Assembly: GCA_016712535.1 (NCBI GenBank)
Contig: JADJQW010000002.1
Location: forward strand, 520,254 to 584,253
DNA length: 64,000 bases
Source of the DNA: Flavobacteriales bacterium
GTDB lineage: Bacteria; Bacteroidota; Bacteroidia; Flavobacteriales_F; PHOS-HE28
Direction: 5' to 3'
Part shown: positions 7,479-64,000 of the stretch, piece by piece
How positions within the stretch are numbered: position 1 is the first letter of the stretch
How the letters are laid out: each line of letters starts with the position of its first letter
Translations under genes and position numbers: made by a program
Notes under the pieces: generated by a model
Told to the model about the DNA's origin: nothing
The model's input: the letters and a program-made list of their open reading frames with translations, nothing else
Databases searched by the model: none

Positions 7479-7531
7479 GGCATCTTGAACCGCACGGGCG
7501 GGATTCTCCCGTTCCGACCAATTCCTCCAAA

Positions 7532-8371: not shown

Positions 8372-8392
8372 GCCATTGCAACAACTGATCGA

Positions 8393-8428: not shown

Positions 8429-8440
8429 GGCCCGCTCATC

Positions 8441-9151
8441 ATGGCCACCCCCTACAAGCGAATCCTCCTGAAGCTCTCCGGCGAGAGCCTCATGGGCGAT
8501 CTGGACTACGGCATCGACCCGCAGCGCATCGGCCAATACGCCGATGAGATCATCGGCATCGCCAAGCAGGGCGTCGAGGTGGCCGTGGTCATCGGCGGGG
8601 GCAACATCTATCGCGGCATGCAAGCCGAAGGCAGCATTGACCGTGTACAAGGCGATCACATGGGCATGCTCGCCACCGTGATCAACAGCCTGGCCTTGCA
8701 GAGCGCACTCGAGGCCAAAGGCCACAAGACCCGCTTGATGACCGCCATCAAGATGGAGCAGATCGCCGAACCCTTCATCCGCCGCCGGGCCGTGCGCCAT
8801 CTGGAGAAGGGCCGGGTGGTCATCTTCGGCGCCGGCACGGGCAACCCCTACTTCACCACGGATACGGCTGCGAGCCTGCGCGCCATCGAGATCGAGGCCG
8901 ACGTGATCCTGAAAGGCACGCGCGTGGACGGCATCTACACCGCCGACCCCGAGAAGGACAAGACCGCAACCAAGTACGAGAGCATCTCATTCGCTGAGGT
9001 CTATGCCAAGGGCCTCAATGTGATGGACATGACGGCCTTCACGCTCTGCAAGGAGAACAAGCTGCCGATCATCGTCTTCGACATGAACAAGCCCGGCAAT
9101 CTCGGCCGACTGATCGCTGGCGAGCGCGTGGGCACGCTGGTGGAGTTCTGA
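8441..9151 (+). CDS. pyrH: UMP kinase
   Basis: [19 protein letters not shown]...[11 protein letters not shown]... Canonical PyrH. Confidence 0.9.
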
Positions 9152-18115: not shown

Positions 18116-18218
18116 ATGCCCAGGTTTTAAGGATCGACAATGTAGAAACGCTGGGCACACCACCAAGCCCAGGCCCATGCATGCGCGCTCGGCCCACAGG
18201 CTGCTCAAGGTGGACCGC

Positions 18219-34429: not shown

Positions 34430-34447
34430 CGCTTCTACCTTGCCGCC

Positions 34448-40750: not shown

Positions 40751-40764
40751 GGCGGGGTCCGGAT

Positions 40765-41067
40765 TCAGCGCCGCCGCTTCTTCGATCGCAATGGCCTGCG
40801 ACTCGTATGGAAAACACTGTACACAATGGCTAGGCCATCCGTCAACTCGAACACGATGCAATACGGGAAGTCCTGGACCGGGGCGTATCGGAATCCGTTC
40901 ACCCGTTCAGGGTAGCTGCATGTCACGCGAACCAGGTCCTCAATGGCTTTGAGCACTGCTGTTTCGAAGCGCGCGCCAAGTTTCGGTTGCTCGAGCTCGT
41001 AGTGCAATGAGGCCTCCTGCCATTCCTGCCAAGCCAGGTCGCGCAGCTCAATGGCCTTCGCCTTCAT
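40765..41067 (-). CDS. Type II toxin, RelE/ParE family
   Basis: 100 aa; ...FRYAPVQDFPYCIVFELTDGLAIVYSVFHTSR matches the RelE/ParE C-terminal pattern. Start overlaps the antitoxin stop (ATGA). Confidence 0.65.
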   Translation of the reverse strand: MKAKAIELRDLAWQEWQEASLHYELEQPKLGARFETAVLKAIEDLVRVTCSYPERVNGFRYAPVQDFPYCIVFELTDGLAIVYSVFHTSRRPLRSKKRRR

Positions 41068-42466: not shown

Positions 42467-42619
42467 GTCTATAGGCGGACAAGTTTACCGGAGAAAGCAC
42501 AGCCATGAGTGCAGGGTAATTGCGGCGCCGGATGCCTAGCCTATTGCGATTGCTCTTAGATTCGCTCTGCCGTGGCCAATAGCATGGTCCGAATTAGGTC
42601 TGAACAAACACGACCAGAC

Positions 42620-43588
42620 ATGCACTCGGCATTCCAGCTTTGCCTTGCGCTGCTTGCGCCCGGCTTGTGCGCACAAAACCTGGTGCCCAATCCGAGCTTC
42701 GAGATGGTGGATACATGCCCGCAGTTTCCCCTCGTGCTGGGCTACCAGCCAGGGGCGGTGCCCCAGCATTGGTACAGTTCGAGCGATACCCCGGATTATT
42801 TCAACTCTTGTGAGGATAACGATGTTGGCGGTGTACCTAACAACGTTTTCACGCACCAATTGGCTCACGATGGGGGCGCATATTCGGGAATGTGGTCATT
42901 CCTCGCGGACGACCATAGGGAGATGATTGGAGTTGAGTTATTGAGCGACCTGGTCGTCGGTGAGACCTACTACGCAAGTTTCTACGCCAACGCTGCTTTC
43001 GGCGGCAGTCAGGGAACCGGCCGCGTATGCGATAATCTCGGGTTGCTCTTTTGCACAGCCCCGTACTACTGGCTCTATGGGTCGTCCATGCCGGAATTCG
43101 GCTGTCGCAACTACGCGCACGTGTGGTCAACCGAGGTCATCAGCGATACCTCTGCGTGGGTGCTCGTGAGCGGGGCATTCGTTGCGGATTCAGCCTATCG
43201 GTACATGGTTGTTGGGAATCACTTCGACAACGCCAACACGGTTACCGATAGCCTGGGCCCGAACCCGAACGCCTATCAATTGGTTGATCAGGTCTGTGTC
43301 TCACTGAACCCTTCGCAATGCCCGTTGATCAACGGAGCGGGAGAGTTTTCCAGGACATGGATTGGTGTCCATCCGAATCCTGCGAAGGATGTATTCCAGG
43401 TCTCCTGGGAAGGGCGGGCCAACCGACTGCATGTGTTCGATATGGTCGGTCGGAGCATCTGGCAGGCCACAACACAGGGCGAGAATGGTCTTGTGGTCGA
43501 TGTTGCGCACTGGGCTCGTGGCCACTATGCAATGATTCTCGAAGGGGATAGCTGGTGCTACTCGCACAAGTTAGTTCTGGTGGAGTGA
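42620..43588 (+). CDS. Hypothetical secreted protein with a T9SS type-A C-terminal sorting domain (lower-GC gene)
   Basis: Signal peptide MHSAFQLCLALLAPGLCAQN. C-terminus IGVHPNPAKDVFQVSWEG...GHYAMILEGDSW is a T9SS CTD. Noticeably more A/T at third codon positions than neighbouring genes. Confidence 0.55.
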   Translation: MHSAFQLCLALLAPGLCAQNLVPNPSFEMVDTCPQFPLVLGYQPGAVPQHWYSSSDTPDYFNSCEDNDVGGVPNNVFTHQLAHDGGAYSGMWSFLADDHREMIGVELLSDLVVGETYYASFYANAAFGGSQGTGRVCDNLGLLFCTAPYYWLYGSSMPEFGCRNYAHVWSTEVISDTSAWVLVSGAFVADSAYRYMVVGNHFDNANTVTDSLGPNPNAYQLVDQVCVSLNPSQCPLINGAGEFSRTWIGVHPNPAKDVFQVSWEGRANRLHVFDMVGRSIWQATTQGENGLVVDVAHWARGHYAMILEGDSWCYSHKLVLVE

Positions 43589-43614: not shown

Positions 43615-45672
43615 ATGGAGAACTGGAAAACCTTCAAAAGCCTTGGCTTGGTCGTGTTCCTATTCGTCAGTGCGAAAGGCAAGGGTCAAGTATCGCAGCT
43701 GAACAATACGGTTACCGCCGTGACCGACTACATAGGCTGCGACGTGAACAGCAACCAGCCGTTGCGATTCACAACGCAGTTGAACTTTCCACATCAATGG
43801 CGAACGGATAATGCACTCCGGATGCGGCTTACACAAACGCTTACGGGCCAGTCAGTGAACGGCTAAGGAAACCGGGACCTGTCAGGGCATCTGGGAATTG
43901 GCCTGTTCACGGATCCGGATGTGAACCGGCCCTTCTCCATGCTTCACATTGATTCGGCGGGCGGGCAGGACACCGGCTACCGCCCGTGGATGAAGGTGGG
44001 CATGACGCTCACTCAATGGTCGGACCTGAGCTACTTCGGCCTGAAATCGGAGAGCAACGACGACAACCATGCGGTGATTGCTTGGAGCGATAACCAAACG
44101 GGCTTGGATGGCCCGGACCTGTTGAAATTCATCTTTTTGATGAACAACAACACAAGCGGTCCAACGGCCGCTTTGGACAATGGTTTGGAGGCGGCCCGCT
44201 TCCTGCCACACACCAGCGGGAATCAATCGTTCTTCGGTGTTGGAGATTGGTTCACGGCTGGCCTCAATCCGACGGAACGCGTCGATCTTCTTGATGGTCG
44301 CTTACGCATCCGCCAGCTTCCGGATGATTCGGAGACTGACCAGGCCTTCAAGGTGATGGTAGTGGACGACACGAACGACCCGTTGGAACGCGGTGTGGTG
44401 AAGTGGAAGAACATCAACCTAAGCGCTGATTGCGATTGGGTGGTGCAGACTGGAGACCCGCATGTGTCGAGCGTGTACGATGGGAGCAGCTGCTTGTGGG
44501 ACCGTCGGCATGGCGTGGGCATCGGCATGGATGTGCCCCGCGCCAAATTGCACGTGCATCACAACAACTATGAGTTGCTAGCTCGCATTGGTACCTGGTC
44601 TAGGACCGAGTCGGATGATTTTCAGAATGAGTTCCAGGGGGTCTTGGGCGAATGTGGTCCTATAGATCCTGACGGCTTCTTTGGCCACGCTGAAGGAGTA
44701 CAAGGACTCGCCTACAACTGCAAGACCACCATCGGTGTGCATGGCCACGGCCGTTACGACTCCCAACAACCGGGAACCGGCACCGGATTCCTGGTGGGCG
44801 TGCTCGGCGTGGCCGAGTACGATCAGCCGTGGCAGGCTTCATTCTCCGCAGGCGTGTATGGTCGATCCATAGCCCCGCAAGGCGCTGGCCAGGCATGGGC
44901 TGGTTTCTTCCAGGGCGATGTGATGATCACCGGGAACGGTTTTGTTAATGGGGCCATCCCCATCACCTCCGATGCTCAGTTCAAGACCGGCGTGGAGGAA
45001 TTGACAGGCGCCTCGGAGTTGCTATCTGCCTTGCAGCCGAAGCGCTACTCCTTCAATGACCTTGGGCAATCCGTGGTCGGTTTGCCGGATGGTGAGCAAC
45101 TCGGGTTCATCGCGCAGGAATTGGAGGAGGTGCTTCCAGATTTGGTGCATGAAACACAGCGACCGGCTGATCTGAATGATGCAGGCGATGTCGTCCAAGA
45201 AGCCATCGACTACAAAGCGGTGAACTACATCGGGCTCATCCCGGTCCTGGTTGCGGGCTTCCAGGAATTGCAAGGGCGCGTTGCGGCGCAGGAGTCGGTG
45301 ATCGCGCAGCTCCAGGAAGAACTCGCCGCCTGTTGCGCCGCCTCGAACGACGATGGCACGCGCTCAATTACGGGGAGCACGACCGATGAGGGCTCCATCA
45401 CCCCCACCCAGGAGCGCCTGCTCCGCATCGCACCCAATCCCTTCACCGACCGCACCACGCTCTTCTGCACGCTGGAGCACGCAGGCCGCATGCAGTTGCT
45501 GGCCAACAGTACCGATGGCCGCAGCTTGATGGTGCTGAGCGAGGGCCAGCGCGAGGCCGGTGAGTTCCAGTATGAATGGAGCACGGAGAAACTCGCGCCC
45601 GGCGTGTACTACATCAACCTCTTGCTCGACGGCGAGCCGGTGGTGAAGCGCGCGGTGAAAGTGGGGAAGTAA
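43615..45672 (+). pseudogene. Tail-fibre-domain / S74 intramolecular-chaperone-domain surface protein with a T9SS CTD, interrupted by a single in-frame TAA at 43864..43866
   Basis: ORF 43615..43866 (signal peptide MENWKTFKSLGLVVFLFVSAKG) and ORF 43921..45672 are in the same frame, separated only by TAA. The downstream part has no start or signal peptide of its own. It ends with an endosialidase-chaperone-like segment (LSALQPKRYSFNDLG...GFIAQELEEVLPDLV...IDYKAVNYIGLIPVLVAGFQEL) and a T9SS CTD (LRIAPNPFTDRTTL...GVYYINLLLDGE). Confidence 0.5.
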
Positions 45673-48873: not shown

Positions 48874-51800
48874 ATGATGACCCTGATAACGCGCCTTCCC
48901 GCGCTGCTGGCCGCCCTCGCGCTGGGCCTGCTCATCCATGCCCAGCGGCCCGCCCACTACACCCACCAGGATGCCGACCTGATCAACGCGATCGAGCTCT
49001 TCGGCATGGAGAAGTACGGCGCCGCCCAGTACGAGTTCCAGCACGTGGCCGACCGCATCAGCGACCTGCACGACCCGCGCCGCACCGAAGCCGAGTTCTA
49101 CATCGCCCTCTGCAGCGTGCGCCTCTTCAACGACGATGCCGGCTACCGCCTCAAGCGCTTCATGACCGAGCACCCCGAGGACCTGCATGTGCCCTTGATC
49201 AAGCTCGAGCTCTTCCGCCACAGCTTCAACCAGAAGGATTGGGAGGACGTGATCGCGTGGAGCGATCAGGTGAACGCCTCGGCCTTGAGCACCAGCGATG
49301 CGGAGGAGTTCCGTTTCAAGCGCGGCTACGCCTTCTTCCAGACCGGCAATAGCGAGAAGGCCCTCTCCGAATTCGCTCAGGTGAAGGACAGCGAGGGCCT
49401 CTTCGGGGCGCCCGCGCTCTATTACACCTCGCACATCCACTACGAGCGCGGCAACCACGAGACGGCGCTGCAAGGCTTCCGCAGGCTCGAGGGCAATGCG
49501 GACTTCGCCCCGCTGGTGCCCGTTTACATCGCCGAGATCCTCTTCGTGCAGGGCAAGTACGATGAGCTGGCAGAGTACGTGAAGCCCTTGCTCGCTGATC
49601 CGCAAGGCATCAAGCGGCAGGCGGAGATCAACCGTTTGGCGGGCGAGGCCAACTACCGTCGTGGCAATTACGCTGAAGCACTGCCCTACCTCCAGAAGAG
49701 CGCTCAGCGCGTGGGTGTTGACCGCAGCGACCGCTACATCCTCGGGTATGCCTATTACAAGACGGGCGATTGCCAGAAAGCGCTGGCTGAGCTGATCACG
49801 GTGGCCAATGCCGATGACAGCCTCGCGCAGCTCGCCAGCTACCACATGGCCGACTGCTACTTCAAGCTGAACGAGAAGAACTACGCGCGCAACGCCTTCA
49901 AGAAGGCCTATGAGATCGGCAAGCCGGGCGAGGGCGAAACGAAGGGCGACGCGAAAGTGACCGAGGATGCCCTCTTCCAGTACGCCAAGCTGGCCTATGA
50001 GCTCAGCTTCGATCCCTACCACGAGGCAATCACCGCGTTGCGCAGCTACCTGCGCGCATACCCGAACACCCCGCGCCGCGATGAAGCCTACGAATTCCTG
50101 TTGAACGTGTACTTGAAGACGCGCAACTACGAGGATGCGCTCGCTTCATTGGATGAGATCCAGAACAAGGACCTCCGACTGCGGGAGGCTTATCAAAAGC
50201 TCGCCTACAACCGCGGCGTGGAATTGTACGAGGGCCGCAAGTACAGCGATGCCGCGCTCTTCTTCGAACGGGCGCTGAAGTACCCGGTGAACCAGGGCAC
50301 CAATGCGCGCGCGCACTTCTGGATGGCCGAGAGCCATTACGGCAAGGGCGACCTCACGGCAGCGCTCCAGAAGTACGACGACCTGCGCAATTCACCCGGC
50401 GCGTACAGCACCGACCTGTATGAGCAGGCCGGCTATGGCATGGGCTACGCCTACCTGAAGCAGAAGGATTACACCGAGGCCGCCGTGGCCTTCCGCCGCT
50501 ATGTGCTGAGCAAGAAAGGGGAGGCGAGGCAGCGCGCGGATGCCATGCTACGCACCGGCGATTGCTACTTCGTGCTGAAGGACAACGAGCAGGCCGTGAA
50601 GTGGTACGACGATGCCATGCGCACCGGATCGCCTGACCGCGACTACGCGATGTACCAGAAAGGCGTGTGCCAGGGACTGCTGCGCCGCTATCCGGAGAAG
50701 ATCGCCACGCTGAAGGCGCTGCTCGCGGAGCTCCCCAACTCGCGCTACGCCGCCGATGCCAAGTTCCAGCTGGGTGAGACCTACATCGTGCAGGGCGGCG
50801 ACAGCGAGGCGCTGAGCTATTACACCCAGGTGACCAACGTCCACCCGAACAGCCCGCTCGTGCGGCAGTCCATGCTGCAGAGCGCGCTCATCCACAAGCG
50901 CCAGGGCCGCACCGAGGAGGCCATCTCCGGCTTCAAGGCCGTGGTGGAGAAATACCCCACGATGGATGGCGCGCGTGACGCGCTCGCCGGACTGGAGAAC
51001 ATCTACATAGAGCTGGGCCGCGTGAGCGAGTACGAGGCGTACGTGCGTTCGCTGAAATGGGTGGACCCCGGCACGCTGGAGTTCGACGAGAAGTACTACC
51101 AGAGCGCGGAGAAGCTCTACTTCGAGGAGAAGTGCCCGCAAGCCATAGGCGCCTTCGGCGATTACATCAGCAAGTACCCCAATGGCGGCTATGTGCTCAA
51201 CGCCCTCTACTACCGCGGCGATTGCCACTACCGTTCGGGCGCATACGACCAGGCGATCACCGATCTGGAAGAGGTGATCCGCCGCAATGGGGCGCAATTC
51301 ATGGAGAGCGCTTCGGCCATGGCGGCCGATATCCTCTTCCGCGACAAGCGGTACGAGGGCGCGCTCGACCACTTCAAGCGCTTGGAGCCCATCGCGGCAT
51401 CGCCGCAGAACACCTTGGTTGCGCAGGTGGGTCAGATGCGCTGCTTGCGGGAATTGGGGCGCATCGCCGAAGCCTCGGCCGCCGCAGAGAAAGTGGTCGC
51501 GAACAGCCAGGCGGACAACGACCTGAAGAGCGAGGGCAACATCCTCATCGCCCGCAACCTGGCCGACCGGGGCGAGCTTGATGCGGCCTACGCGAAGTTC
51601 AAGGCCGTTGCCACGGGAAGCACCACGGCGCGCGGCGCAGAGGCCAAGTACAACATGGCTTACATCCGTCACCTGCAGACGCAGTACCGCAAGGCTGAAA
51701 CGGAAGTCTTCGAGCTGGCGCAGCGCTATTCCAGCCACGACCATTGGAAGGCGCGCTCCTTCATCCTGCTCGGCGATGTGTACGTGCAGCTCAACGACCT

Positions 51801-51978
51801 CTTCCAGGCGCGCGCCACGTTGCAGAGCGTGATCGACAATTGCCGCGAGCCTGACCTGGTGGCGCAGGCGCGCCAGCGCCTCGATGCCATCAACGCCAGT
51901 CAGGTGCCACGAGAGCAGCTCGTCCCCGGTGGATCGGACGAGATCATCCTTCCCCAGCCCGGCGGCAACGGCCAATAG
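48874..51978 (+). CDS. Large tetratricopeptide-repeat (TPR) protein with signal peptide
   Basis: About 1034 aa. Signal peptide MMTLITRLPALLAALALGLLIHAQ. Many 34-aa TPR-like units (…YYRGDCHYRSGAYDQAI…, …ALYYTSHIHYERGNHETAL…). Confidence 0.65.
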   Translation: MMTLITRLPALLAALALGLLIHAQRPAHYTHQDADLINAIELFGMEKYGAAQYEFQHVADRISDLHDPRRTEAEFYIALCSVRLFNDDAGYRLKRFMTEHPEDLHVPLIKLELFRHSFNQKDWEDVIAWSDQVNASALSTSDAEEFRFKRGYAFFQTGNSEKALSEFAQVKDSEGLFGAPALYYTSHIHYERGNHETALQGFRRLEGNADFAPLVPVYIAEILFVQGKYDELAEYVKPLLADPQGIKRQAEINRLAGEANYRRGNYAEALPYLQKSAQRVGVDRSDRYILGYAYYKTGDCQKALAELITVANADDSLAQLASYHMADCYFKLNEKNYARNAFKKAYEIGKPGEGETKGDAKVTEDALFQYAKLAYELSFDPYHEAITALRSYLRAYPNTPRRDEAYEFLLNVYLKTRNYEDALASLDEIQNKDLRLREAYQKLAYNRGVELYEGRKYSDAALFFERALKYPVNQGTNARAHFWMAESHYGKGDLTAALQKYDDLRNSPGAYSTDLYEQAGYGMGYAYLKQKDYTEAAVAFRRYVLSKKGEARQRADAMLRTGDCYFVLKDNEQAVKWYDDAMRTGSPDRDYAMYQKGVCQGLLRRYPEKIATLKALLAELPNSRYAADAKFQLGETYIVQGGDSEALSYYTQVTNVHPNSPLVRQSMLQSALIHKRQGRTEEAISGFKAVVEKYPTMDGARDALAGLENIYIELGRVSEYEAYVRSLKWVDPGTLEFDEKYYQSAEKLYFEEKCPQAIGAFGDYISKYPNGGYVLNALYYRGDCHYRSGAYDQAITDLEEVIRRNGAQFMESASAMAADILFRDKRYEGALDHFKRLEPIAASPQNTLVAQVGQMRCLRELGRIAEASAAAEKVVANSQADNDLKSEGNILIARNLADRGELDAAYAKFKAVATGSTTARGAEAKYNMAYIRHLQTQYRKAETEVFELAQRYSSHDHWKARSFILLGDVYVQLNDLFQARATLQSVIDNCREPDLVAQARQRLDAINASQVPREQLVPGGSDEIILPQPGGNGQ

Positions 51979-51981
51979 ACC

Positions 51982-53691
51982 ATGAAGCGCAACCTCCTCC
52001 TCCTCGCCGCACTGCTGCCGATCGCGCTGTTCCTGCCCCGTCAGGCATGCGCGCAGAACGAGGGCCAGTACGTGATCCAGGGCATCTACAACCCTACGCT
52101 CATCGATGCGCAGAAGATCGATCTGCGGCCCGAGGGCATCGACACCATCCTGCCCACCCTGCCCGTGAGCTACAACCTGTTGCCGGCCAAGGCCGATATC
52201 GCGCCGCGCGCCGACAGCCTGGCCGCCGCCAAGCTCAACGTGGAGAAGGCGCAGGCACGGCTCTACAAGGGCTTCGTGAAGGCCGGCTACGGCTTGTACA
52301 ACACGCCCATCGGCGAGCTCCACTTCAATCAGGTGCGCTCCCGCAAGAACGGCTACGGCTTCCACCTGAAGCACATGAGCAGCAATGGCGGGCTCGACGA
52401 TGTGGGCCCGAGCCGCTACGGCAACAACAGCATCGATGCCTTCTATCGCCACATCATCCAGAAGAACGAGGCCAGCGGCAGGCTCATGTACGACCGGCGC
52501 CGCATCAGCTATTACGGCTACCCCAGCAACGAAGGGCTTGAGGATTCATTGAGCCTGCTCGGAGGCGACAAGGACCGCCTGAAGCAGTTCTACAACGACA
52601 TCGGCTTCGCCGCGCGTGTGCGCAGCCTCTACGAGGACAGCAGCCGCATCGCGCATGATGTCGGCCTCGAAGCGCACACCTACAGCAATTTCAGCGGGAG
52701 CCGCGAGACCAACATCCGGGTGGCGGCGGAAGCCGGCAAGCAAGAGAAGACCGAGTACTACCACGCCACACTGCTGATTGACAACAACGCCTTCCGTGGA
52801 AGGGTCTCGCCCGACTCATCGGAGTTCAGGCAGAACGGCACGCTCATCGGCCTCTTGCCCAGCGTGCGCACCGTTGGCCGCAAGTACTTCGTGCGCGCCG
52901 GCGTGGGCCTCTACCTCGATGCGCTCGGCGAGACCACCTTCCACTTCTTCCCGCAGGCCTACGCGCACTACGCGCTGTTCGACAACATCCTGGTGCCATA
53001 CGTGGGCCTCGATGGAGAGCGCCGGCGCAACAGCTTCCGCAGCCTCACGCGCGAGAACCCCTGGCTCAACCCCGCTCCGCGCCAGCGCAACACCAGCAAG
53101 CTGTTCGATGCGTATGGAGGCCTCCGCGGCAGCTTCGGCAACCACATCGGCTTCGATGTCCGCGCCAGCTTCAGCTCGAATGAGGACATGCCCCTCTACA
53201 TCAACACGCCCAATGCGCCCTTCGGCGACCGCATGGATGTGGTGTACGACGAGGTGGAGATCATGGACTTCAGCGGTGAGCTCACGTACAGCACCGCCAA
53301 GGACACGCGCCTGAGCGCCCGGATCGACGTGTACACCTACGCCACCCGCGTAGAGGATGAGCCTTGGAACCTGCCGCCTTACAAGATCACCTTCGCCGCG
53401 CGCCACAGCCTGCGCGACAAGCTCGTGCTGAAGGCCGAGGCCCTCTTCCTGGGCCGCCGCACCGCCTACCGCGCGCCCGAGGCCAGCACCGACAGCAGCG
53501 TGGTGGCCGTGAGCACCCGCACCCAGCTCGATGGATTCCTCGACCTCTACCTCGGTGCCGAGTACCGCTACACCAAGCGGCTGAGCATGTTCCTCGACAT
53601 CAGCAACCTCAGCGCGAGCAAATACGAGCGCTGGTACCGCCACCCCACGCAGCGGGGGCTGATCATGATCGGGGCGACCTACGCGTTCTGA
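51982..53691 (+). CDS. Hypothetical outer-membrane beta-barrel protein
   Basis: Signal peptide (LLLLAALLPIALFLPRQACAQ). Alternating amphipathic strands. C-terminal ...LIMIGATYAF with a terminal Phe. Starts 4 bp after the TPR gene. Confidence 0.5.
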   Translation: MKRNLLLLAALLPIALFLPRQACAQNEGQYVIQGIYNPTLIDAQKIDLRPEGIDTILPTLPVSYNLLPAKADIAPRADSLAAAKLNVEKAQARLYKGFVKAGYGLYNTPIGELHFNQVRSRKNGYGFHLKHMSSNGGLDDVGPSRYGNNSIDAFYRHIIQKNEASGRLMYDRRRISYYGYPSNEGLEDSLSLLGGDKDRLKQFYNDIGFAARVRSLYEDSSRIAHDVGLEAHTYSNFSGSRETNIRVAAEAGKQEKTEYYHATLLIDNNAFRGRVSPDSSEFRQNGTLIGLLPSVRTVGRKYFVRAGVGLYLDALGETTFHFFPQAYAHYALFDNILVPYVGLDGERRRNSFRSLTRENPWLNPAPRQRNTSKLFDAYGGLRGSFGNHIGFDVRASFSSNEDMPLYINTPNAPFGDRMDVVYDEVEIMDFSGELTYSTAKDTRLSARIDVYTYATRVEDEPWNLPPYKITFAARHSLRDKLVLKAEALFLGRRTAYRAPEASTDSSVVAVSTRTQLDGFLDLYLGAEYRYTKRLSMFLDISNLSASKYERWYRHPTQRGLIMIGATYAF

Positions 53692-53884
53692 GCGCCCGTG
53701 ATGGGCTCAGGAATCGGCTGAGAAGGTGGTCTCCTGCGGAGGCGGGGATCCAGTTTCAAGGGCTTCTACGCCCCCTGTCAACGCCCTCTTCCGAACAAGC
53801 GTTAATTATCAACAGAATCCGCGTCCGTGTTGGGAAAACGGCCCTGTTAACCGGGTGTGAAAAGGTACCTTTGGGAGCCTTTGA

Positions 53885-55888
<2,004 letters not shown>

Positions 55889-55905
55889 CTCGTCCATCCC
55901 GTCAG

Positions 55906-55940
55906 AGCGAAGGCCCCAGTGTTTCACCGGGGCCTTCGCT
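55906..55940. terminator. Bidirectional terminator hairpin between convergent gyrB and the giant adhesin gene (12-bp perfect stem AGCGAAGGCCCC/GGGGCCTTCGCT)
   Basis: Read directly. Lies between the gyrB stop (55888) and the adhesin stop (55971). Confidence 0.5.
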
Positions 55941-55970
55941 CATTCCATGGGATGCGTGGAATCTGGTCTT

Positions 55971-58900
55971 CTACTTCAGCACAGTCACGTGCCCGACCCT
56001 TTCGGTCAGCTCGTTGGTGAGCTTGTTCTTGAACTTCATCTTCCACACATACACATCCTCCTGCACCACTTCGCCTTGGTAATCGCCGCCCCAGGGCGCA
56101 TGCACCTGTTCACTCCGGGTGAGCAGCAATCCCCATCGGTCGAAGATCATGAACTCGTAGTCCTTCACGAGCTGCGGAAGGTTGAAGATGGGCATGAACG
56201 TGTCGTTCTCGCCGTCGCCATTCGGGGTGACGGCATTGGGCACCCAGACCACGAGCGCGTCGAGCACCTCGACCGGCTCGCAATGCGTGTCGGCGCAGCC
56301 GTTGGCATCGTACGCGGTGAGGCAGACCATGTAAGTATCACCCAATCCGCCGGGGAAGGTGAACGATGGTGAGGTGGCTGTGCTGCTTCCCACGCCTCCG
56401 AAATCCCAAGAGAAGCTCACCGCATTCGGCGATGAGGTGTTCGTGAAGTCCGCGGTTGATGAGCCTACGTAAAGCGTCTCTGGCGCGAAGTCGAAGTCGG
56501 CCACAACGGGTGCCGGGCGCGCGATCGTGGCCATTCCAGAAGCCGAGCAGCCGTTCGCATCCTGCATCAGCACCACGTATTGCCCAGGGCAGAGTCCGGT
56601 GAACACGCTGCCGGAGCCGAATGCGCCGCCGTTCAAGCTGAAGAGCGCGCCTTCTGGATCGACCACTGTGATGCTGCCGTCGCAAGCGCCGGGACAGGTC
56701 TCGTCGGTGGCGAGGATCGTGTCGATCACCAGCGGTTCCGGTTCATCGATGCTGAACGGAACGATGGTGAAGCATCCGTTCTCGTCGAGGACGGTCACGG
56801 TGTATTCACCAGCGCAGATGCCCGTTGCACTGGGCGAATTGCCCGCGATGGAGCCTGACCAAGCGTAGTCGTATGCACCGTTGCCGCCCGTTGCGGATAC
56901 GCTTGCCGTTCCATCGCAAACGCCGTTGCAGATGGCGTCGGTCAAGGCGACTACGGGAACGATCGCATCCGTGAAGATGATCGTCACCTCATCCTGCGTG
57001 GCGCAGCCATCAGTGGATAGCACGCTCCAGGTTAGCGTGTATGGGCCGCCGGCGATCGCGGTCACGGTGCTCGTAGGCGAACCGGGATCGCTGAAGGTCA
57101 TGCCGGCCGGGCCGCTCCACGAGCCGCTTGCCCAACTGCCCGTGGCGTTCAGCGTGTATTCGAGCGTGCAGCTCACTGCATCGGGCCCGGCGTTGGGCGG
57201 CGCGATCAGGAAAACCGTGGCCGTTGAGCTCGCATAGGCATTGGGGCAGGGCAATAGGCCGAGGACCGTGTAGGTGTACACGCCTTGCGCGCTTGTCGCG
57301 GGGTCGAAGATGCCGTTGCTCGGCTGGCCTCCGGGACCGGTCCAAGTGCCACCCGCCATCGGGGTTCCGCCCAGCAACGAGAAGAGCTCGATGGCCGCGG
57401 CCTCCGGGCATAGTGTGATGGCGCCGTTCGTTCCGGCATCGGGCAAGGGGTTCACCGCCATGGTGACCGTGGCGCTCTGGTCCAAGCAGGGTGCTGTGGC
57501 TTGCACGGTGTACACATAACTGCCGGGCGCGTCCGTCGCAGGGTCGAAGTTGTTCTCGCTGGGCGTGCCGTTCGGTGCTGTCCATTCACCGCCCGCATCC
57601 GGCGATCCGTTCAGGAGGTTGAAGAGCGCGACAGGCGCATCATCGGAGCAGAGCGTGGCGCTGCCATCGATTCCAGGATCCACCGGGGCAACAATGCTCA
57701 TGGCCACAATGCTGGTGTCATTCTCACAAGGCGCAGGAACGAATAGGATGTAGGTGTAAGTGCCAGCGGCTTGTACGCTCGGATCGAAGCCGCCCGTCGC
57801 CGGGCTTCCATCCGGCGCAAACCATGATCCTCCTGCATCAGGGCTTCCACCGAGCAGATCGAAGAGGTCGATGGGAGCGTTATCGCCACAAAGCGTGGAA
57901 GCGCCATCGATTCCTGCATCCGCGTTCGAGAGCACGTTCACGGTGATCACCGCCGAGGCCGACGGACAGGGCGCCACGCCATTCACGGAGTAGGAGTAAT
58001 CGCCCGGAGCGCTTGCGCCCGGCGTGAAGATCCCGTTGGAAGTGCCGTTCGGCCCCGTCCATGTTCCTCCGGGATCGGCAGCGCCAAGCAGGGGGTAGAG
58101 GTCCACTGCATCTCCGACCACGCATAGGTTCAGGATGTCATCCGCTCCAGCGTTGGGCAGCTGCGTCACGGCCACCGTTACACTGGCCGCATCCGCCGGG
58201 CATGGTGCAGCGCCTTGAACGGTATAGGAGAACACGCCGGGTGCATCGGTTGCGGGATCGAAGGTCCCGCTGTAAGAGCTGCCACCGCTCGTAGTCCAGC
58301 TGCCGCCGGGCTCTGGCGTTCCTCCAAGGATGGCGAAGAGGTCCTGAGGCGCATTGCTGAAGCAGAGCGTAATTGCGCAATCGAGTCCTGCATCAGGCGG
58401 CGAGACCACATCCACCGTGACCGTGCTGCTCACGCTGGCGCATGGCGGCGGAACCGCGATCGTGTAGGTGTATACGCCGCTGGCCATCACAGCAGGATCG
58501 AAGAGGCCATTGAAGGCCGTTCCTGCGGGGGTGGTCCACAGGCCACCTTGATCAGGAGAGCCCTCGAGGTAGCTGAAGAGGTCATCCGGGGCAGCATTTC
58601 CACAGATGGTGAGGAAGCCAGGGCCGCCGGGATCGGGTTCGGTCACGACGGTCAGGGTTGCCGTGGCGGCATCAGCAGGGCAAGGCGTGGTTCCATTCAC
58701 CGTGTAGGTATACGCTCCCGCGCTCATCGTTGCAGGGTTGAAGGCCCCGCCTATCACCGGCGATGGTCCGCTCCATGTGCCGCCTGCATCTGGCGTGCCT
58801 CCCAGCGAGTTGATCAATGCAACGGCCGGGCTTGTGATGCACAGGGTCAATGCACCGTCGATTCCTGCATCCGGAGGCTGGATGACATTCACAACGACCG

Positions 58901-61900
58901 TGCTGCTGACGCTCGCGCAAGGCGGCGGAACAGCAATCGTGTACGTATATGCGCCGGCACTCATGGTAGCGGGGTCGAAGAGGTCACCGGCTACAGCACT
59001 GGGTCCTGTCCAGGCGCCACCAGGGTCAGGTGAGCCACCGAGCTGGGCGAACAGGCCGATCGGCGCATCGCTGAAGCATAGGGTGATGGAACCATCTGTG
59101 CCGGGGTCGGGTTCACTAACGACCGTCACCATCACCTGTGATTGATCATCAGGGCAAGGCGCCGTTCCGTTCACCGTGTAGGCGTATGCGCCAGCCGTCA
59201 TCGTTGCGGGGTTGAACATCCCGCCCGCCACCGGCGAGGGACCGCTCCACGTTCCACCCGCCTGCGCGCCGACGCCAAGCGCTGCGAACAACAATGCCGG
59301 CGGACTGCTGATGCAGAGCGTGATCGCCCCATCGGTGCCTGCGTTCGGCGGTGCGATCTCGGTGATGGTCACGGTGCTGCTCGCGTTCACGCACGGCGGC
59401 GGAACGGTGATCGTGTAGGTGTAGACGCCGGGGACCATCGTGGCGGGATCAAACAGTCCACCGACCACTGCGGAAGGCCCGCTCCACGTGCCGCCTGCAT
59501 CGGGTGTGCCGCCTAGTTCAGCGAAGAGGTCGATGGAAGCATCCGTTGCGCAGAGCGTCGCGCTGCCCGGTGCACCAGCATCCGGTGCGGCAACAACGGT
59601 CACCGTCACCTGTGATTGAGCATCAGGGCAAGGCGCCGTTCCGTTCACCGTGTAGGTGTATGCGCCAGCCGTCATCGTTGCGGGGTTGAACATCCCGCCC
59701 ACCACCGGCGAAGGACCGCTCCACGTTCCACCCGCCTGCGCGCCGCCGCCAAGCGCTGCGAACAACGATGCCGGCGGACTGCTGATGCAGAGCGTGATCG
59801 CCCCATCGGTGCCTGCGTTCGGCGGTGCGATCTCGGTGATGGTCACGGTGCTGCTGGCGTTCACGCATGGCGGCGGCACCGTGATCGTGTAGGTGTAGAC
59901 GCCGGGGACCATCGTGGCGGGGTCGTATTGTCCGCCGAGCACGGGAGAAGGGCCGCTCCATGTGCCGCCGAGATCCGGTGTGCCGCCCAATTCAGCGTAG
60001 AGGTCTATGGCCGCATCCGTGGCGCAAAGTGTCGCACTGCCGGGCGTGCCTGCATCCGGCGCAGCAACGACGTTCACCGTCACCGTGCTTTGGTCATTCG
60101 GGCATGGTGCCGTGCCGCTCACGGTGTAGGTGTACACACCTGCGCTCATCGTCGCCGGGTTGAACATGCCGCCGACGACAGGCGATGGTCCGCTCCATGT
60201 TCCGCCAGCCTGTGCGCCGCCACCCAGCGCTGCGAACAGCGATGCCGCCGGGCTGCTGATGCAGAGCGTGATCGCGCCATCGGTGCCTGCGTTGGGCGGC
60301 GCGATCTCGGTGATGGTCACGGTGCTGCTGGCGTTCACGCATGGCGGCGGCACCGCGATCGTGTAGGTGTACACCCCGGGGTTCATCGTGGCAGGGTCAT
60401 ACACGCCGCCTACTACGGGTGATGGCCCGCTCCACGCACCGCCTGCGTCGGGTGTTCCGCCCAATTCACTGAAGAGCAAGAGTGAAGCATCGATCGCGCA
60501 GAGCGTAGCGCTGCCCGGAGTCCCTGCATTCGGATTCGTCGCCACGCTCACATCAACTGTTGCGGAAACCGAGGGGCATGGGGCAGTTCCGTTGACCGTG
60601 TATGAGTACAAACCGACTGCATCCACACCGGGCGTGAAGCTTCCGGTGGAGGCGCCTCCTCCGGGCGCAGTCCAGCTTCCACCGAGGTCAGGCGTGCCAT
60701 TCAGTCCTGTGATCAGTGCTGTGGCCGGGCTCGAAGAGCAGAGCGTGAGGCCGCCATTGATGCCCGCATCGGGCATGGTGTTCACTGTGACTGTGACGAG
60801 CGCGATGTCAGCTGGACAGGGAGTTGCGCCATTGACCGCATAGGAGTAAACGCCTGATGCATCGATCCCAGGGGTGAAGGTGCCCGAATGCGCGGCTGCA
60901 TTGAAGCTCCATGCGCCACCAACTTGCGGTGCACCATTCAACAAGCCGAACAAGTCGAATGCCGCATCGATTTCACATACCGTGATTCCTCCATCGCCAC
61001 CTGCATCGGGCGGTGCGTTGATCGTCACCGTCACCGTAGATGCTGCGTCAATGCACGGCGCAGCGCCGGCGACCGTGTAGGTGTACACGCCCGCGAGCAT
61101 CGTCGCAGGATCGATCATGCCGCCGACGACCGGCGAAGGACCGCTCCATGTTCCACCGGCATCCGGCGTTCCGCCGAGCTGCGCGAAGAGACTTGCGGCA
61201 GCATCACTCGAGCAGAGCGTGATCGCGCCATCGGTCCCGGGATCAGGCGGTGCGTTGATCGTCACCGTCACCGTTGCTTGCTCATCGGGGCAAGGCGCTG
61301 TTCCGGTCACGGTGTAGGTGTACACGCCCGCGAGCATCGTCGCGGGATCAATCATGCCGCCGACGACCGCAGAAGGACCGCTCCATGCTCCACCGGCATC
61401 CGGCGTTCCGCCGAGCTGCGCGAAGAGACTTGCGGCAGCATCACTCGAGCAGAGCGTGATCGCGCCATCGGTTCCGGGATCCGGCGGTGCGTTGATCGTC
61501 ACCGTCACCGTTGCTTGCTCATCGGGGCAAGGCGCTGTTCCGGTCACGGTGTAGGTGTACACGCCCGCGAGCATCGTCGCGGGATCGATCATGCCGCCGA
61601 CGACCGGCGAAGGACCGCTCCATGTTCCACCGGCATCCGGCGTTCCGCCGAGCTGCGCGAAGAGACTTGCGGCAGCATCACTCGAGCAGAGCGTGATCGC
61701 GCCATCGGTCCCGGGATCAGGCGGTGCGTTGATCGTCACCGTCACCGTTGCTTGCTCATCGGGGCAAGGCGCTGTTCCGGTCACGGTGTAGGTGTACACG
61801 CCCGCGAGCATCGTCGCAGGATCGATCATGCCGCCGACCACTGCACTTGGACCGCTCCATGTTCCACCGGCATCCGGCGTTCCGCCGAGCTGCGCAAAGA

Positions 61901-64000
61901 GTGAAGCAGGAGCATCGCTCGAGCAGAGCGTGATTGCGCCATCGGTCCCGGGATCGGGCGGTGCGTTGATCGTCACCGTCACCGTTGCTTGCTCGTCGGG
62001 GCAAGGCGCTGTGCCTGTCACGGTGTAGGTGTACACGCCCGCGAGCATCGTCGCGGGATCGATCATGCCGCCGACGACCGGCGAAGGACCGCTCCATGCT
62101 CCACCGGCATCCGGCGTTCCGCCGAGCTGCGCGAAGAGTGAAGCAGGAGCGTCGCTCGAGCAGAGCGTGATCGCGCCATCGGTCCCGGGATCAGGCGGTG
62201 CGTTGATCGTCACCGTCACCGTTGCTTGCTCATCGGGGCAAGGCGCTGTGCCTGTCACGGTGTAGGTGTACACGCCCGCGAGCATCGTCGCGGGATCGAT
62301 CATGCCGCCGACGACCGGCGAAGGACCGCTCCATGCTCCACCGGCATCCGGCGTTCCGCCGAGCTGCGCGAAGAGTGAAGCAGGAGCGTCGCTCGAGCAG
62401 AGCGTGATCGCGCCATCGGTCCCGGGATCAGGCGGTGCGTTGATCGTCACCGTCACCGTTGCTTGCTCATCGGGGCAAGGCGCTGTGCCTGTCACGGTGT
62501 AGGTGTACACGCCCGCGAGCATCGTCGCGGGATCGATCATGCCGCCGACGACCGGCGAAGGACCGCTCCATGCTCCACCGGCATCCGGCGTTCCGCCGAG
62601 CTGCGCGAAGAGTGAAGCAGGAGCATCGCTCGAGCAGAGCGTGATCGCGCCATCGGTCCCGGGATCGGGCGGTGCGTTGATCGTCACCGTCACCGTTGCT
62701 TGCTCGTCGGGGCAAGGCGCTGTGCCTGTCACGGTGTAGGTGTACACGCCCGCGAGCATCGTCGCGGGATCGATCATGCCGCCGACGACCGGCGAAGGAC
62801 CGCCCCATGTTCCACCGGCATCCGGCGTTCCGCCGAGCTGCGCGAAGAGTGAAGCAGGAGCATCGCTCGAGCAGAGCGTGATCGCGCCATCGGTCCCGGG
62901 ATCGGGCGGTGCGTTGATCGTCACCGTCACCGTCGCGCTCTCGTCAGGGCAGGGCGCTGTGCCTGTCACGGTGTAGGTGTACACGCCCGCGAGCATCGTC
63001 GCGGGATCGATCATGCCGCCGACGACCGGCGAAGGACCGCTCCATGTTCCACCGGCATCCGGCGTTCCGCCGAGCTGCGCGAAGAGTGAAGCAGGAGCGT
63101 CGCTCGAGCAGAGCGTGATCGCGCCATCGGTCCCGGGATCAGGCGGTGCGTTGATCGTCACCGTCACCGTTGCTTGCTCATCGGGGCAAGGCGCTGTGCC
63201 TGTCACGGTGTAGGTGTACACGCCCGCGAGCATCGTCGCGGGATCGATCATGCCGCCGACGACCGGCGAAGGACCGCTCCATGCTCCACCGGCATCCGGC
63301 GTTCCGCCGAGCTGCGCGAAGAGTGAAACAGCTGGATCTGATGAACACAGCGTGATAGCACCGCTCGTGCCGGCATTCGGGGCCTGATTAATGGCGACGG
63401 TCAGTGTGGCAATGTCATTCGGGCATGGGGCCGTGCCAATGACGGTGTAGGTGTAAACACCTGGCGGATCAACTGCTGGGTCGAGGCCGCCGCTCATCGC
63501 ACCGCCTCCAGGACCTGTCCATGAACCAGTTCCATCGGGCCCACCGCCTAACTGCGCAACCATCACTACCGGCGCGCTGGTCGTGCATAGCGTAATGCTC
63601 GCGTCCAGTCCGGCGTTGGGAGGTGCGCTCTCCGAAACAGCAACGGTAGCATCAGCGTTCGGGCATGGCGCCGTTCCGTTCACCGTGTAGGTGTACACGC
63701 CAGGGTTCATCGTGGCCGGGTTGTAGTTGCCTCCAATCACCGGCGATGGCCCGGTCCAGGTGCCGCCGGGCTGCGCGTTTCCACCGAGCAGAAAGAACAT
63801 CGATTGCGCAGCATCGGTGCTGCAAACAGCGAGGCTCGTCGGCGTGCCGGCATCGGGCAACGGATATACGGTCACATTCACTGTACTGCTCACCGGCGCG
63901 CCGCACGCTCCACCGCCACCCACCGTGTAGGTGTAGATGCCCGGTGGGTCGACGCCCGGGACGAACATGTTGGAATGCGCTCCGCCGCCGGGCATCGTCC
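55971..64000 (-). CDS. Giant SprB-like cell-surface adhesin, C-terminal part (>2,670 aa in window): tandem ~79-aa Ig-like repeats, SprB-type repeats, a PKD-like domain and a type-B T9SS / gliding-motility-associated C-terminal domain. The N-terminus lies beyond the window.
   Basis: Single open frame across 8 kb. C-terminus VPNAVTPNGDGENDTFMPIF...MIFDRWGLLL...VYVWKMKF is the type-B T9SS CTD. Upstream are SprB-repeat-like units (CNGVCDGTASVSATGGNGAYDYAWSG..., CPGACDGSITVV...GQYVVLMQDANGC). Before that are at least 30 units of the pattern DAG.DG.ITLC...LF..LGG.PD.GG.W.GP...GG..DPA....G.YTYTV.G..PC.D..ATVTV. Confidence 0.8.
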   Translation of the reverse strand, partial: TMPGGGAHSNMFVPGVDPPGIYTYTVGGGGACGAPVSSTVNVTVYPLPDAGTPTSLAVCSTDAAQSMFFLLGGNAQPGGTWTGPSPVIGGNYNPATMNPGVYTYTVNGTAPCPNADATVAVSESAPPNAGLDASITLCTTSAPVVMVAQLGGGPDGTGSWTGPGGGAMSGGLDPAVDPPGVYTYTVIGTAPCPNDIATLTVAINQAPNAGTSGAITLCSSDPAVSLFAQLGGTPDAGGAWSGPSPVVGGMIDPATMLAGVYTYTVTGTAPCPDEQATVTVTINAPPDPGTDGAITLCSSDAPASLFAQLGGTPDAGGTWSGPSPVVGGMIDPATMLAGVYTYTVTGTAPCPDESATVTVTINAPPDPGTDGAITLCSSDAPASLFAQLGGTPDAGGTWGGPSPVVGGMIDPATMLAGVYTYTVTGTAPCPDEQATVTVTINAPPDPGTDGAITLCSSDAPASLFAQLGGTPDAGGAWSGPSPVVGGMIDPATMLAGVYTYTVTGTAPCPDEQATVTVTINAPPDPGTDGAITLCSSDAPASLFAQLGGTPDAGGAWSGPSPVVGGMIDPATMLAGVYTYTVTGTAPCPDEQATVTVTINAPPDPGTDGAITLCSSDAPASLFAQLGGTPDAGGAWSGPSPVVGGMIDPATMLAGVYTYTVTGTAPCPDEQATVTVTINAPPDPGTDGAITLCSSDAPASLFAQLGGTPDAGGTWSGPSAVVGGMIDPATMLAGVYTYTVTGTAPCPDEQATVTVTINAPPDPGTDGAITLCSSDAAASLFAQLGGTPDAGGTWSGPSPVVGGMIDPATMLAGVYTYTVTGTAPCPDEQATVTVTINAPPDPGTDGAITLCSSDAAASLFAQLGGTPDAGGAWSGPSAVVGGMIDPATMLAGVYTYTVTGTAPCPDEQATVTVTINAPPDPGTDGAITLCSSDAAASLFAQLGGTPDAGGTWSGPSPVVGGMIDPATMLAGVYTYTVAGAAPCIDAASTVTVTINAPPDAGGDGGITVCEIDAAFDLFGLLNGAPQVGGAWSFNAAAHSGTFTPGIDASGVYSYAVNGATPCPADIALVTVTVNTMPDAGINGGLTLCSSSPATALITGLNGTPDLGGSWTAPGGGASTGSFTPGVDAVGLYSYTVNGTAPCPSVSATVDVSVATNPNAGTPGSATLCAIDASLLLFSELGGTPDAGGAWSGPSPVVGGVYDPATMNPGVYTYTIAVPPPCVNASSTVTITEIAPPNAGTDGAITLCISSPAASLFAALGGGAQAGGTWSGPSPVVGGMFNPATMSAGVYTYTVSGTAPCPNDQSTVTVNVVAAPDAGTPGSATLCATDAAIDLYAELGGTPDLGGTWSGPSPVLGGQYDPATMVPGVYTYTITVPPPCVNASSTVTITEIAPPNAGTDGAITLCISSPPASLFAALGGGAQAGGTWSGPSPVVGGMFNPATMTAGAYTYTVNGTAPCPDAQSQVTVTVVAAPDAGAPGSATLCATDASIDLFAELGGTPDAGGTWSGPSAVVGGLFDPATMVPGVYTYTITVPPPCVNASSTVTITEIAPPNAGTDGAITLCISSPPALLFAALGVGAQAGGTWSGPSPVAGGMFNPATMTAGAYAYTVNGTAPCPDDQSQVMVTVVSEPDPGTDGSITLCFSDAPIGLFAQLGGSPDPGGAWTGPSAVAGDLFDPATMSAGAYTYTIAVPPPCASVSSTVVVNVIQPPDAGIDGALTLCITSPAVALINSLGGTPDAGGTWSGPSPVIGGAFNPATMSAGAYTYTVNGTTPCPADAATATLTVVTEPDPGGPGFLTICGNAAPDDLFSYLEGSPDQGGLWTTPAGTAFNGLFDPAVMASGVYTYTIAVPPPCASVSSTVTVDVVSPPDAGLDCAITLCFSNAPQDLFAILGGTPEPGGSWTTSGGSSYSGTFDPATDAPGVFSYTVQGAAPCPADAASVTVAVTQLPNAGADDILNLCVVGDAVDLYPLLGAADPGGTWTGPNGTSNGIFTPGASAPGDYSYSVNGVAPCPSASAVITVNVLSNADAGIDGASTLCGDNAPIDLFDLLGGSPDAGGSWFAPDGSPATGGFDPSVQAAGTYTYILFVPAPCENDTSIVAMSIVAPVDPGIDGSATLCSDDAPVALFNLLNGSPDAGGEWTAPNGTPSENNFDPATDAPGSYVYTVQATAPCLDQSATVTMAVNPLPDAGTNGAITLCPEAAAIELFSLLGGTPMAGGTWTGPGGQPSNGIFDPATSAQGVYTYTVLGLLPCPNAYASSTATVFLIAPPNAGPDAVSCTLEYTLNATGSWASGSWSGPAGMTFSDPGSPTSTVTAIAGGPYTLTWSVLSTDGCATQDEVTIIFTDAIVPVVALTDAICNGVCDGTASVSATGGNGAYDYAWSGSIAGNSPSATGICAGEYTVTVLDENGCFTIVPFSIDEPEPLVIDTILATDETCPGACDGSITVVDPEGALFSLNGGAFGSGSVFTGLCPGQYVVLMQDANGCSASGMATIARPAPVVADFDFAPETLYVGSSTADFTNTSSPNAVSFSWDFGGVGSSTATSPSFTFPGGLGDTYMVCLTAYDANGCADTHCEPVEVLDALVVWVPNAVTPNGDGENDTFMPIFNLPQLVKDYEFMIFDRWGLLLTRSEQVHAPWGGDYQGEVVQEDVYVWKMKFKNKLTNELTERVGHVTVLK
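61081..63213. repeat. Nine near-identical 237-bp (79-aa) tandem coding repeats inside the giant adhesin gene
   Basis: Same-phase ORFs of identical length at 61081, 61318, 61555, 61792, 62029, 62266, 62503, 62740 and 62977 (period exactly 237 bp). They differ by only 0-4 codons. Flanking units (60874.., 63214..) are progressively more divergent. Confidence 0.8.

Follow-up and report, generated by a model that had tools for sequence, protein, structure and literature searches.

The final 8 kb of the window, by which we mean the whole 64,000-nt stretch analysed here (GCA_016712535.1, contig JADJQW010000002.1, positions 520,254 to 584,253, from a Flavobacteriales bacterium), belong to a minus-strand gene that carries a block of nearly identical 237-bp tandem repeats. 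The locus raises the question of what such a gene encodes, how its repeats stay so alike and whether their number changes. The original prediction, made without database searches, described a giant SprB-like adhesin of variable length, whose repeats had either expanded very recently or were evolving in concert. [quoted passage not shown]

Read on the minus strand, the frame stays open from 63998 down to a stop codon at 55971–55973 and runs off the end of the window, as had been predicted for a gene of more than 8 kb. The segment 55971..63998 thus holds the C-terminal 2675 codons and the stop codon of the gene. The protein encoded within the window coincides exactly with the last 2675 aa of protein P0127 (GenBank MBK8226007.1; 3402 aa), which comes from a Flavobacteriales metagenome-assembled genome (MAG) and bears the GenBank name “PKD domain-containing protein.” The full length and the N-terminus were read from this identical protein and from the same-species protein P0126, whose first 1042 aligned residues agree without exception with P0127 and whose start lies 23 residues upstream of the P0127 start. 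These give a full protein of 3402–3425 aa, whose first ∼750 codons fall outside the window, past its end. The additional residues of P0126 contain a signal-peptide-like sequence; its N-terminus, MAVLYDRIHLDALIRRAFLCLACLASAAISALAQP, has a hydrophobic stretch ending in ALA-Q and, judged by eye, resembles a signal peptide.

In the N-terminal head of ∼720 aa, three domains were recognised: CUB-like (22.1 bits, cut-off 21.4), PKD (57.1 bits) and the P-domain of proprotein convertases (35.5 bits). They are followed by ∼250 aa without a match. A domain-library scan found no peptidase domain in the head. We therefore rejected the label “subtilisin-like proprotein convertase,” which one source gives to relatives, as the P-domain alone matches. 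A whole-protein match to DUF3727 (34.5 bits, cut-off 23.8) was discarded as spurious: it covers 23 profile positions, has no single passing stretch and is summed over the repeats.

Most of the remaining protein is a stalk built of one type of domain, which makes up ∼85% of the in-window protein. The window shows 28 complete units of 78–82 aa, mostly 79 aa, and one that is partial (29 units overall), in the order three unique units, ten A units, two unique units, three BC pairs and eight unique units. Among the 24 units that were aligned, ten columns are invariant (G4, C12, L24, G32, W34, P47, G53, Y57, P64, and C65), so that the two invariant cysteines occur in 24 of 24. Sixteen of the 29 stalk domains are homogenised, and they form two separate arrays.

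The first array, the homogenised A block, occupies 61011..63380 on the minus strand and consists of ten 237-bp units (U03–U12), as defined by Tandem Repeats Finder and unit dissection. In Tandem Repeats Finder the 237-bp array extends over 61005..63331 and counts 9.8 copies, which show matches of 95% and contain no indels (score 4085). The homogenised core spans ∼61077–63323, and U03 and U12 each have an outer half of unique, positionally conserved sequence. Nine back-to-back units had been predicted at 61081..63213; cut into 237-bp pieces, this segment gives exactly 9.0 units. These differ pairwise at 0–23 positions (mean 11.4; 90.3–100% identity; 32 variable columns), and two of the nine are identical to each other. 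A difference of only a handful of nucleotides, as originally described, holds for the central four or five units (U04–U08 differ from each other by 1–10 nt) but not for the edge units, which differ by up to 43 nt, and the ten A units together are 82–99.6% identical. Nor do the units become progressively divergent further out. The edge is abrupt, with the neighbouring units U13 and U14 being only 45–50% identical at the protein level. The longest perfect direct repeat at a lag of 237 measures 392 bp (61996–62387 against 62233–62624), which is beyond chance production, and perfect periodicity spans 629 bp in the block.

The second array lies at 59112..60533 on the minus strand and consists of three 474-bp double units, (BC)x3, corresponding to U15–U20. 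Tandem Repeats Finder placed it at 59118..60533 with a period of 474, 3.0 copies and 85% matches. Protein identity in this array is 83–89% between units two apart and ∼50% between neighbours. It had been missed by the original prediction. The unique units lie around the two arrays on the same strand: U01 and U02, which are divergent, together with the C-terminal 47 aa of U00, cut by the window end (63381..63998); the spacer units U13 and U14 between the arrays (60534..61010); and eight divergent Ig-like units of 78–82 aa, U21–U28 (57198..59111). Several long plus-strand open reading frames (ORFs) antisense to the repeats were also observed within 58215–61904, for example at 60888–61904 (338 aa) and 59616–60422 (268 aa). 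Most likely these are not genes and arise from the periodic sequence and its high G+C content (63–67%).

To follow the units between genomes we compared the locus with its relatives. Among 8,000 candidates scored, 1,487 homologous proteins were found at E ≤ 1e-10, and all matches with a named source organism come from Flavobacteriales MAGs. Two loci, L001 (GCA_016705545.1) and L002 (GCA_016716605.1), are colinear with the window at ∼90% nt identity over 17.5 kb and have in common with it the convergent gyrB gene and further neighbours. They are therefore orthologous loci of sister species. A third, L003, is a same-species contig from a metagenome (JGI contig Ga0245063_00044).

Units of the A block are 97–100% identical to their own paralogues, while their best match among the units of L001, L002, and the homologous protein P0001 is 88–98% identical (protein). 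They match all block units of these three relatives about equally. The same pattern is seen in the DNA. Block units within a genome differ on average by 15.9 nt in the window, 21.8 nt in L001 and 28.5 nt in L002, whereas the mean difference between genomes is 31–42 nt (31–35 nt for the window against L001 and L002), and the nearest neighbour of a block unit is nearly always from the same genome. Each of the unique flanking units finds just one positional orthologue, in one or more of the relatives, with 83–98% identity in L001 or L002 compared with 50–68% to its own paralogues. Thus, U01 and U02 are each 86% identical to an orthologue in P0001; U13 and U14 are 87–98% identical to orthologues in L001 and L002 and 45–53% identical to the other units of their own protein; and U21–U28 each have a 1:1 orthologue in L001 and/or L002 (U21 and U22 have none in L002), with a best match in the L001 protein of 83–97% against 50–68% to their own other units. 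The block units evolve in concert next to flanks that are orthologous one to one, in agreement with one of the two possibilities raised originally.

The other possibility, very recent expansion, was rejected in favour of long-term homogenisation. A homogenised block is found at the same position in lineages whose head and C-terminal domain are only 59–63% identical, so the array is an old one that undergoes continual homogenisation and did not expand recently. Variable codons in the block units are synonymous-only in 19 cases and replacement in 5, and the ratio of nonsynonymous to synonymous substitution rates (dN/dS) is 0.18, consistent with purifying selection on the units. The differences that do occur are patchy. 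Serine codons switch between TCN and AGY at codons 14, 19, and 38 of the 79-codon unit (61011–63380), and multi-nucleotide patches are common to subsets of units (codons 17–19 in U10–U12; codons 37–40 in U09). This suggests gene-conversion mosaics, not independent point mutation.

The relatives all have the same layout, in which unique units are followed by the A block, by one or two further unique units, by the BC array and by more unique units, and the number of units in both arrays varies. The window has ten A units, three BC pairs and 29 units in total. The corresponding numbers are 11, 3, and 30 in L001, 11, 4, and 30 in both L002 and P0001, 5, 4, and 24 in P0008, and 12, 2.5, and 30 in P0003, P0004, and P0005. 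The suggested comparison of repeat number between orthologues therefore reveals A blocks of 5, 10, 11, and 12 units, with the BC array varying as well. Variation within one species is seen in the sister species that carries P0003. Alleles of 3506, 3664, and 3822 aa (BC = 2.5, 3.5, and 4.5) are separated in length by steps of exactly one or two BC pairs of 158 aa. Identity among them is 99.7–100% in the N-terminal 720 aa, and the 3506- and 3664-aa alleles agree at 99.6–100% over the C-terminal 900 aa; between P0003 (3506 aa) and P0129 (3664 aa) identity is 100% at either end. These alleles lie on contigs of 0.3–4.1 Mb with end regions that are 96–100% identical. The proposal that adhesin length varies between cells or strains thus holds between species and between near-identical alleles of the sister species. 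For the window species it rests on L003, which has seven fewer units and may be collapsed. Metagenome contigs were also scanned with U13–U14; among the matches listed, only relatives with 44–53% identity appeared, and L003 was not recovered. Tandem Repeats Finder showed less homogeneous arrays (70–89%) in those loci, which are uninformative for the window species.

The total number of units was observed to be rather uniform. Counts in the fetched homologues peak sharply at 29–32, with a maximum of 37 (n = 138, with at least 150 aa on either side of the array; the sample is biased to high scorers), and four differently composed orthologues have 30 units each.

The most serious competing explanation is that the unit number is an assembly artefact, produced by collapse or mis-extension, and that the differences from the relatives reflect the behaviour of assemblers. 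The block had been flagged as an assembly-collapse hazard, and the public assemblies bear this out. L003 is 99% identical to the window and shorter by exactly 1659 bp, or 7 × 237 bp. Its A block has three units in place of ten, namely exact copies of U03 and U08 and an exact hybrid of U09 and U12, as a collapsed graph path would give. This shortening could reflect either two unequal crossovers or assembler collapse. L003 also carries a 16-bp frameshifting deletion in U17, and the contig ends 168 bp before the stop codon. In L001 (5625–16066) and L002 (5802–16318) gene calling splits the gene into two ORFs, since individual units of the block measure 233–236 bp, not 237 bp; these 1–2 bp indels within units are most likely uncorrected long-read errors. 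Protein databases are misled by them, with P0006 and P0007 beginning in the middle of a repeat. Furthermore, a Nanopore-plus-Illumina set of activated-sludge MAGs represents population bins, not strains (PMC9765116), and accession ranges and IPK-type locus tags suggest that this set includes L001, L002, and the MAG of the window. With 629 bp of perfect periodicity, an error of one unit is plausible.

Several observations argue against so broad an artefact. At least seven independent assemblies have the block, of 5–12 units, in the same place. The window ORF is intact over 8 kb and keeps an exact 237-bp period without indels, and all but two of the ten A units carry distinguishing variants. The alleles that differ in steps of 158 aa come from the long contigs mentioned above, and P0003 and P0129 are identical at both ends. 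The doubt is therefore limited to the exact count and does not extend to the existence of the array or of variation, and we regard the artefact explanation as unlikely, though worth keeping in mind.

We then asked what kind of protein carries this stalk. The stalk is followed by a PKD-like region, then by two SprB repeats and a PKD domain, and lastly by a type B T9SS C-terminal domain (CTD), all on the minus strand. The PKD-like (K319L-like) domain at 56976..57155 scores below the Pfam threshold (PF22352, 20.4–22.6 bits, cut-off 27). Two Cys-rich SprB-type repeats at 56538..56933 (56766–56933 and 56538–56702; aa 2356–2487) match PF13573 in two stretches with 31.2 bits when the C-terminal 412 aa are scanned alone and with 27.5 bits in the whole-protein scan (cut-off 28). 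The PKD domain at 56283..56456, which has a WDFGG motif, is again below the Pfam threshold (PKD_4 22.6 bits, cut-off 27; PKD 19.0 bits, cut-off 23.5). The type B sorting domain (CHU_C / TIGR04131) lies at 55983..56243, corresponding to aa 2586–2672 of the in-window protein, and ends 3 residues before the stop. Both PF13585 (47.5 bits, cut-off 27) and TIGR04131 (47.9 bits, cut-off 35) are above their cut-offs, and the predicted T9SS/gliding-type C-terminus is confirmed. As to the SprB-type and PKD-like domains said to precede it, the former are just above threshold in the separate scan and the PKD-type matches fall below theirs.

The gene has company of the same kind. Directly upstream of it, beyond window coordinate 64000 and as seen only in L003 (316–9859), the same strand carries an extracytoplasmic function (ECF) sigma factor gene and three CHU_C genes. 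Two of these encode paralogues of the giant protein: one has 47% identity in the head over 725 aa and 35% in the C-terminal 195 aa, with no 79-aa unit, and the other has 43% in the head over 819 aa and 36% in the C-terminal 547 aa, with one 79-aa unit. As the paralogues have the head and the C-terminal module in common, the locus holds one design with stalks of 0, 1, and 29 domains. Type B CTD proteins bind PorP-like proteins (PMC9143113). We found no PorP/SprF family member among the 22 largest window ORFs scanned, nor in the 10 kb upstream in L003, L001, and L002, which is compatible with the “orphan” subclass of type B substrates, i.e., those that have no adjacent shuttle gene and use a common distal shuttle (PMC12618676). 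The orphan substrates of Flavobacterium johnsoniae (Fjoh_1123 as well as Fjoh_1720 and Fjoh_4934; PMC12618676) likewise have a type B CTD and no adjacent porP/sprF-like gene; they occur several per genome, as the four tandem genes do here, and may share a distal shuttle. Here, the CTDs of the four tandem CHU_C genes are only 25–38% identical over the last 100 aa, so a shared shuttle is not implied.

A type B CTD and SprB repeats raise the possibility that the protein is an orthologue or functional equivalent of SprB, i.e., a motility adhesin moving on the gliding track, with the repeats forming the SprB filament. SprB of F. johnsoniae (Fjoh_0979) is likewise a giant repetitive Flavobacteriales surface protein with a type B CTD and SprB-type Cys-rich repeats near its C-terminus. 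Homologues of our protein are named [quoted passage not shown] by their sources, and in F. johnsoniae orphan type B CTDs also target cargo to the gliding machinery (PMC12618676), so that propulsion of our protein is conceivable. The sprB gene lies in a sprCDBF operon, as stated in a passage of PMC5879114 citing Rhodes 2011. No sprC, sprD, or sprF was found at our locus; the flanks are the convergent gyrB downstream and the CHU_C paralogues and ECF sigma factor gene upstream. Nor is the protein built largely of SprB repeats, as there are two of these and the 29 bulk units, a different 79-aa domain, lack a Pfam match. With about half the 6497 aa of SprB (10.1101/2024.01.29.577165), it has a CUB/PKD/P-domain head that is common to short paralogues. 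Of the predicted SprB-like architecture the type B CTD and the two SprB repeats therefore remain, while the bulk of the protein and the operon context do not fit. Because the sprCDBF context is absent and the bulk repeat is different, the protein is not demonstrably a SprB orthologue, and we consider a role as SprB itself improbable.

The stalk unit has no counterpart in the domain libraries. None of 24 units matched Pfam at E ≤ 10, NCBIfam gave sub-threshold noise only, and a sequence-profile search of the PDB with the unit returned nothing better than E = 0.34, with no match to GhpA at E ≤ 10. The unit is widespread nonetheless: with E ≤ 0.001 as the limit its profile hits 4,844 representative protein clusters, and with E ≤ 1e-30 it hits 940; among the best 150 matches each protein has 5–31 matched stretches. 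An AlphaFold2 model of a single unit is all-beta with a predicted local distance difference test score (pLDDT) of 86.8, and the 79-aa unit is predicted to be an Ig-like sandwich domain. A three-unit model reached a pLDDT of 82.9 and a predicted template modelling score (pTM) of 0.60. In Foldseek searches the best matches of the single unit were the Ig-like stem repeats of Aureispira GhpA (E = 0.035 at 21–28% identity; template modelling (TM) score 0.52), which also showed the highest sequence identity among the fold matches (21–29%). With three units, all six top matches were GhpA (E = 1.6e-5 to 1.6e-4, probability 0.96–1.00). The TM-scores of the three-unit model against GhpA were 0.22–0.28, and these low values place the resemblance at the level of the domain, not of the inter-domain geometry.

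GhpA of Aureispira sp. CCB-QB1 (PDB 9flp, 9flu, and 9g8b) is a T9SS substrate with a long run of varying Cys-containing Ig-like repeats, 52 of them within a 240-nm appendage (10.1101/2024.01.29.577165). It differs from our protein in being 5898 aa long and heptameric, with PorP and PorE homologues encoded directly downstream (10.1101/2024.01.29.577165). We found no PorP/PorE homologues of the ghpB and ghpC type adjoining the giant gene, either downstream in the window or in the 10 kb upstream in L003.

A broader version of this likeness would have the two-cysteine 79-aa unit represent an uncurated family (at least 4,844 clusters, always in arrays) that builds GhpA-like disulfide-stapled rigid appendages in environmental Flavobacteriales, with the stalk held near a set-point of ∼30 domains while recombination reshuffles the units, and with the locus carrying the same head at 0, 1, and 29 domains. 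Taken as a whole this is a doubtful proposition. Still less probable is that the protein itself forms a “grappling hook,” in which copies stand side by side in a rigid, disulfide-stapled multimeric stalk with the N-terminal head catching, instead of acting as a monomeric adhesin: the six best PDB matches of the three-unit model, the invariant cysteines, which recall the disulfides between nearby Ig-like domains of GhpA (10.1101/2024.01.29.577165), the T9SS substrate character of both proteins and the clustering of homologue unit counts near 30 speak for it, while the domain-level nature of the similarity, the empty sequence-profile search, the missing PorP/PorE neighbours and an N-terminal region with different domains speak against it. 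The protein is not demonstrably a GhpA orthologue.

The explanation that we prefer is that of a variable-length, T9SS-secreted surface protein. Accounts of Periscope Proteins (Sgo_0707, Rib/alpha C, SasG, Esp, and CdrA; PMC8201768) describe how arrays of highly identical domains give rise to surface proteins of variable length. As in those proteins, an array of folded domains of high identity lies between a distal head and a surface anchor (ten units at 82–99.6%, nine at 90.3–100%, and a pLDDT of 86.8 for the predicted fold), and the unit number changes in exact in-frame steps among close relatives; intragenic recombination has been proposed as the cause. Unlike them, our protein has the type B CTD of a Bacteroidota T9SS and an uncultured environmental host, as opposed to a pathogen with a sortase or a type I or type V secretion system (T1SS/T5SS) anchor. 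Moreover, its 16 homogenised domains out of 29 form two arrays, one being a two-domain super-repeat, and in many relatives the total looks constrained near 30.

We propose the following sequence of events. A fibrillar protein of ∼3,425 aa, consisting of a putative Sec signal peptide, a ∼720-aa head and a stalk of 29 Ig-like domains of 79 aa, would be directed by its type B CTD to export via the T9SS, in analogy with other type B substrates. The CTD would then anchor it to an outer-membrane PorP/SprF-like shuttle encoded elsewhere, making it an orphan substrate, and the rod-like stalk would hold the presumably ligand-binding head away from the cell. Scaled from GhpA at a few nm per unit, 29 units might span roughly 100 nm or more. 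Perfect direct repeats, the longest being 392 bp, offer ample substrate for recombination. Unequal homologous recombination or gene conversion between such repeats of up to 392 bp would keep the arrays near-identical and would also add or remove whole in-frame units. Relatives would in this way come to differ in stalk length, with orthology retained in the head, the CTD and the unique flanking units.

Some points weigh against this reading. L003 is the sole same-species comparison and could be a collapse, as its units are all exact copies or hybrids of window units, and the small indels in the block units of L001 and L002 show that the region is error-prone. If the MAG is a population bin, ten units are a plausible number that may be one too many or too few. 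The totals of often ∼30 units in relatives hint at constraint, not free variation. No T9SS core genes were found among the 22 largest window ORFs scanned or in the 10 kb upstream in L003, and secretion, surface location, rod shape and binding are properties that we infer for this protein.

The remaining surroundings of the gene may be described briefly. Its 3′ end faces the 3′ end of gyrB (53897–55888, plus strand) across 82 bp; a promoter and terminator scan of this gap gave one weak terminator-like site, inside a coding sequence. No Rfam families or tRNAs were found in 50000–64000. At 42572–43588 the plus strand encodes a protein of 338 aa whose CTD is of T9SS type A (Por_Secre_tail, 31.3 bits), an indirect hint of a T9SS in the organism. 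It is followed at 43921–45672, on the plus strand, by a 583-aa protein with a Peptidase_S74 (endosialidase chaperone) domain. Two adjacent paralogous genes for di-haem cytochrome c peroxidases (CCP_MauG, ∼180 bits each) lie on the minus strand at 38588–39649 and 39677–40861. Four ORFs of 569–722 aa had no Pfam match at the thresholds used (51982–53691 on the plus strand; 33119–35287, 16067–18208, and 6737–8800 on the minus strand). The 569-aa ORF adjoining gyrB is kept in L001 and L002, likewise without a Pfam match.

The novelty of the locus is modest and lies in a widespread, uncurated stalk domain with a GhpA-related fold, in the two-array architecture and in a paralogue series with graded stalks. 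In practical terms, public assemblies contain relatives of this gene that are collapsed or wrongly split into two ORFs, and the name that one source gives to a relative rests on the P-domain alone. The 79-aa unit, a widespread domain without a Pfam or NCBIfam model whose closest solved structure is the GhpA stem, is a target for curators and structural biologists. For molecular evolution, the gene provides a clean natural case of concerted evolution, with two independently homogenised arrays beside unique units that are positionally orthologous. If our reading is correct, it would extend the principle of variable-length surface proteins, described mainly from cultured pathogens, to T9SS-anchored proteins of uncultured Bacteroidota.

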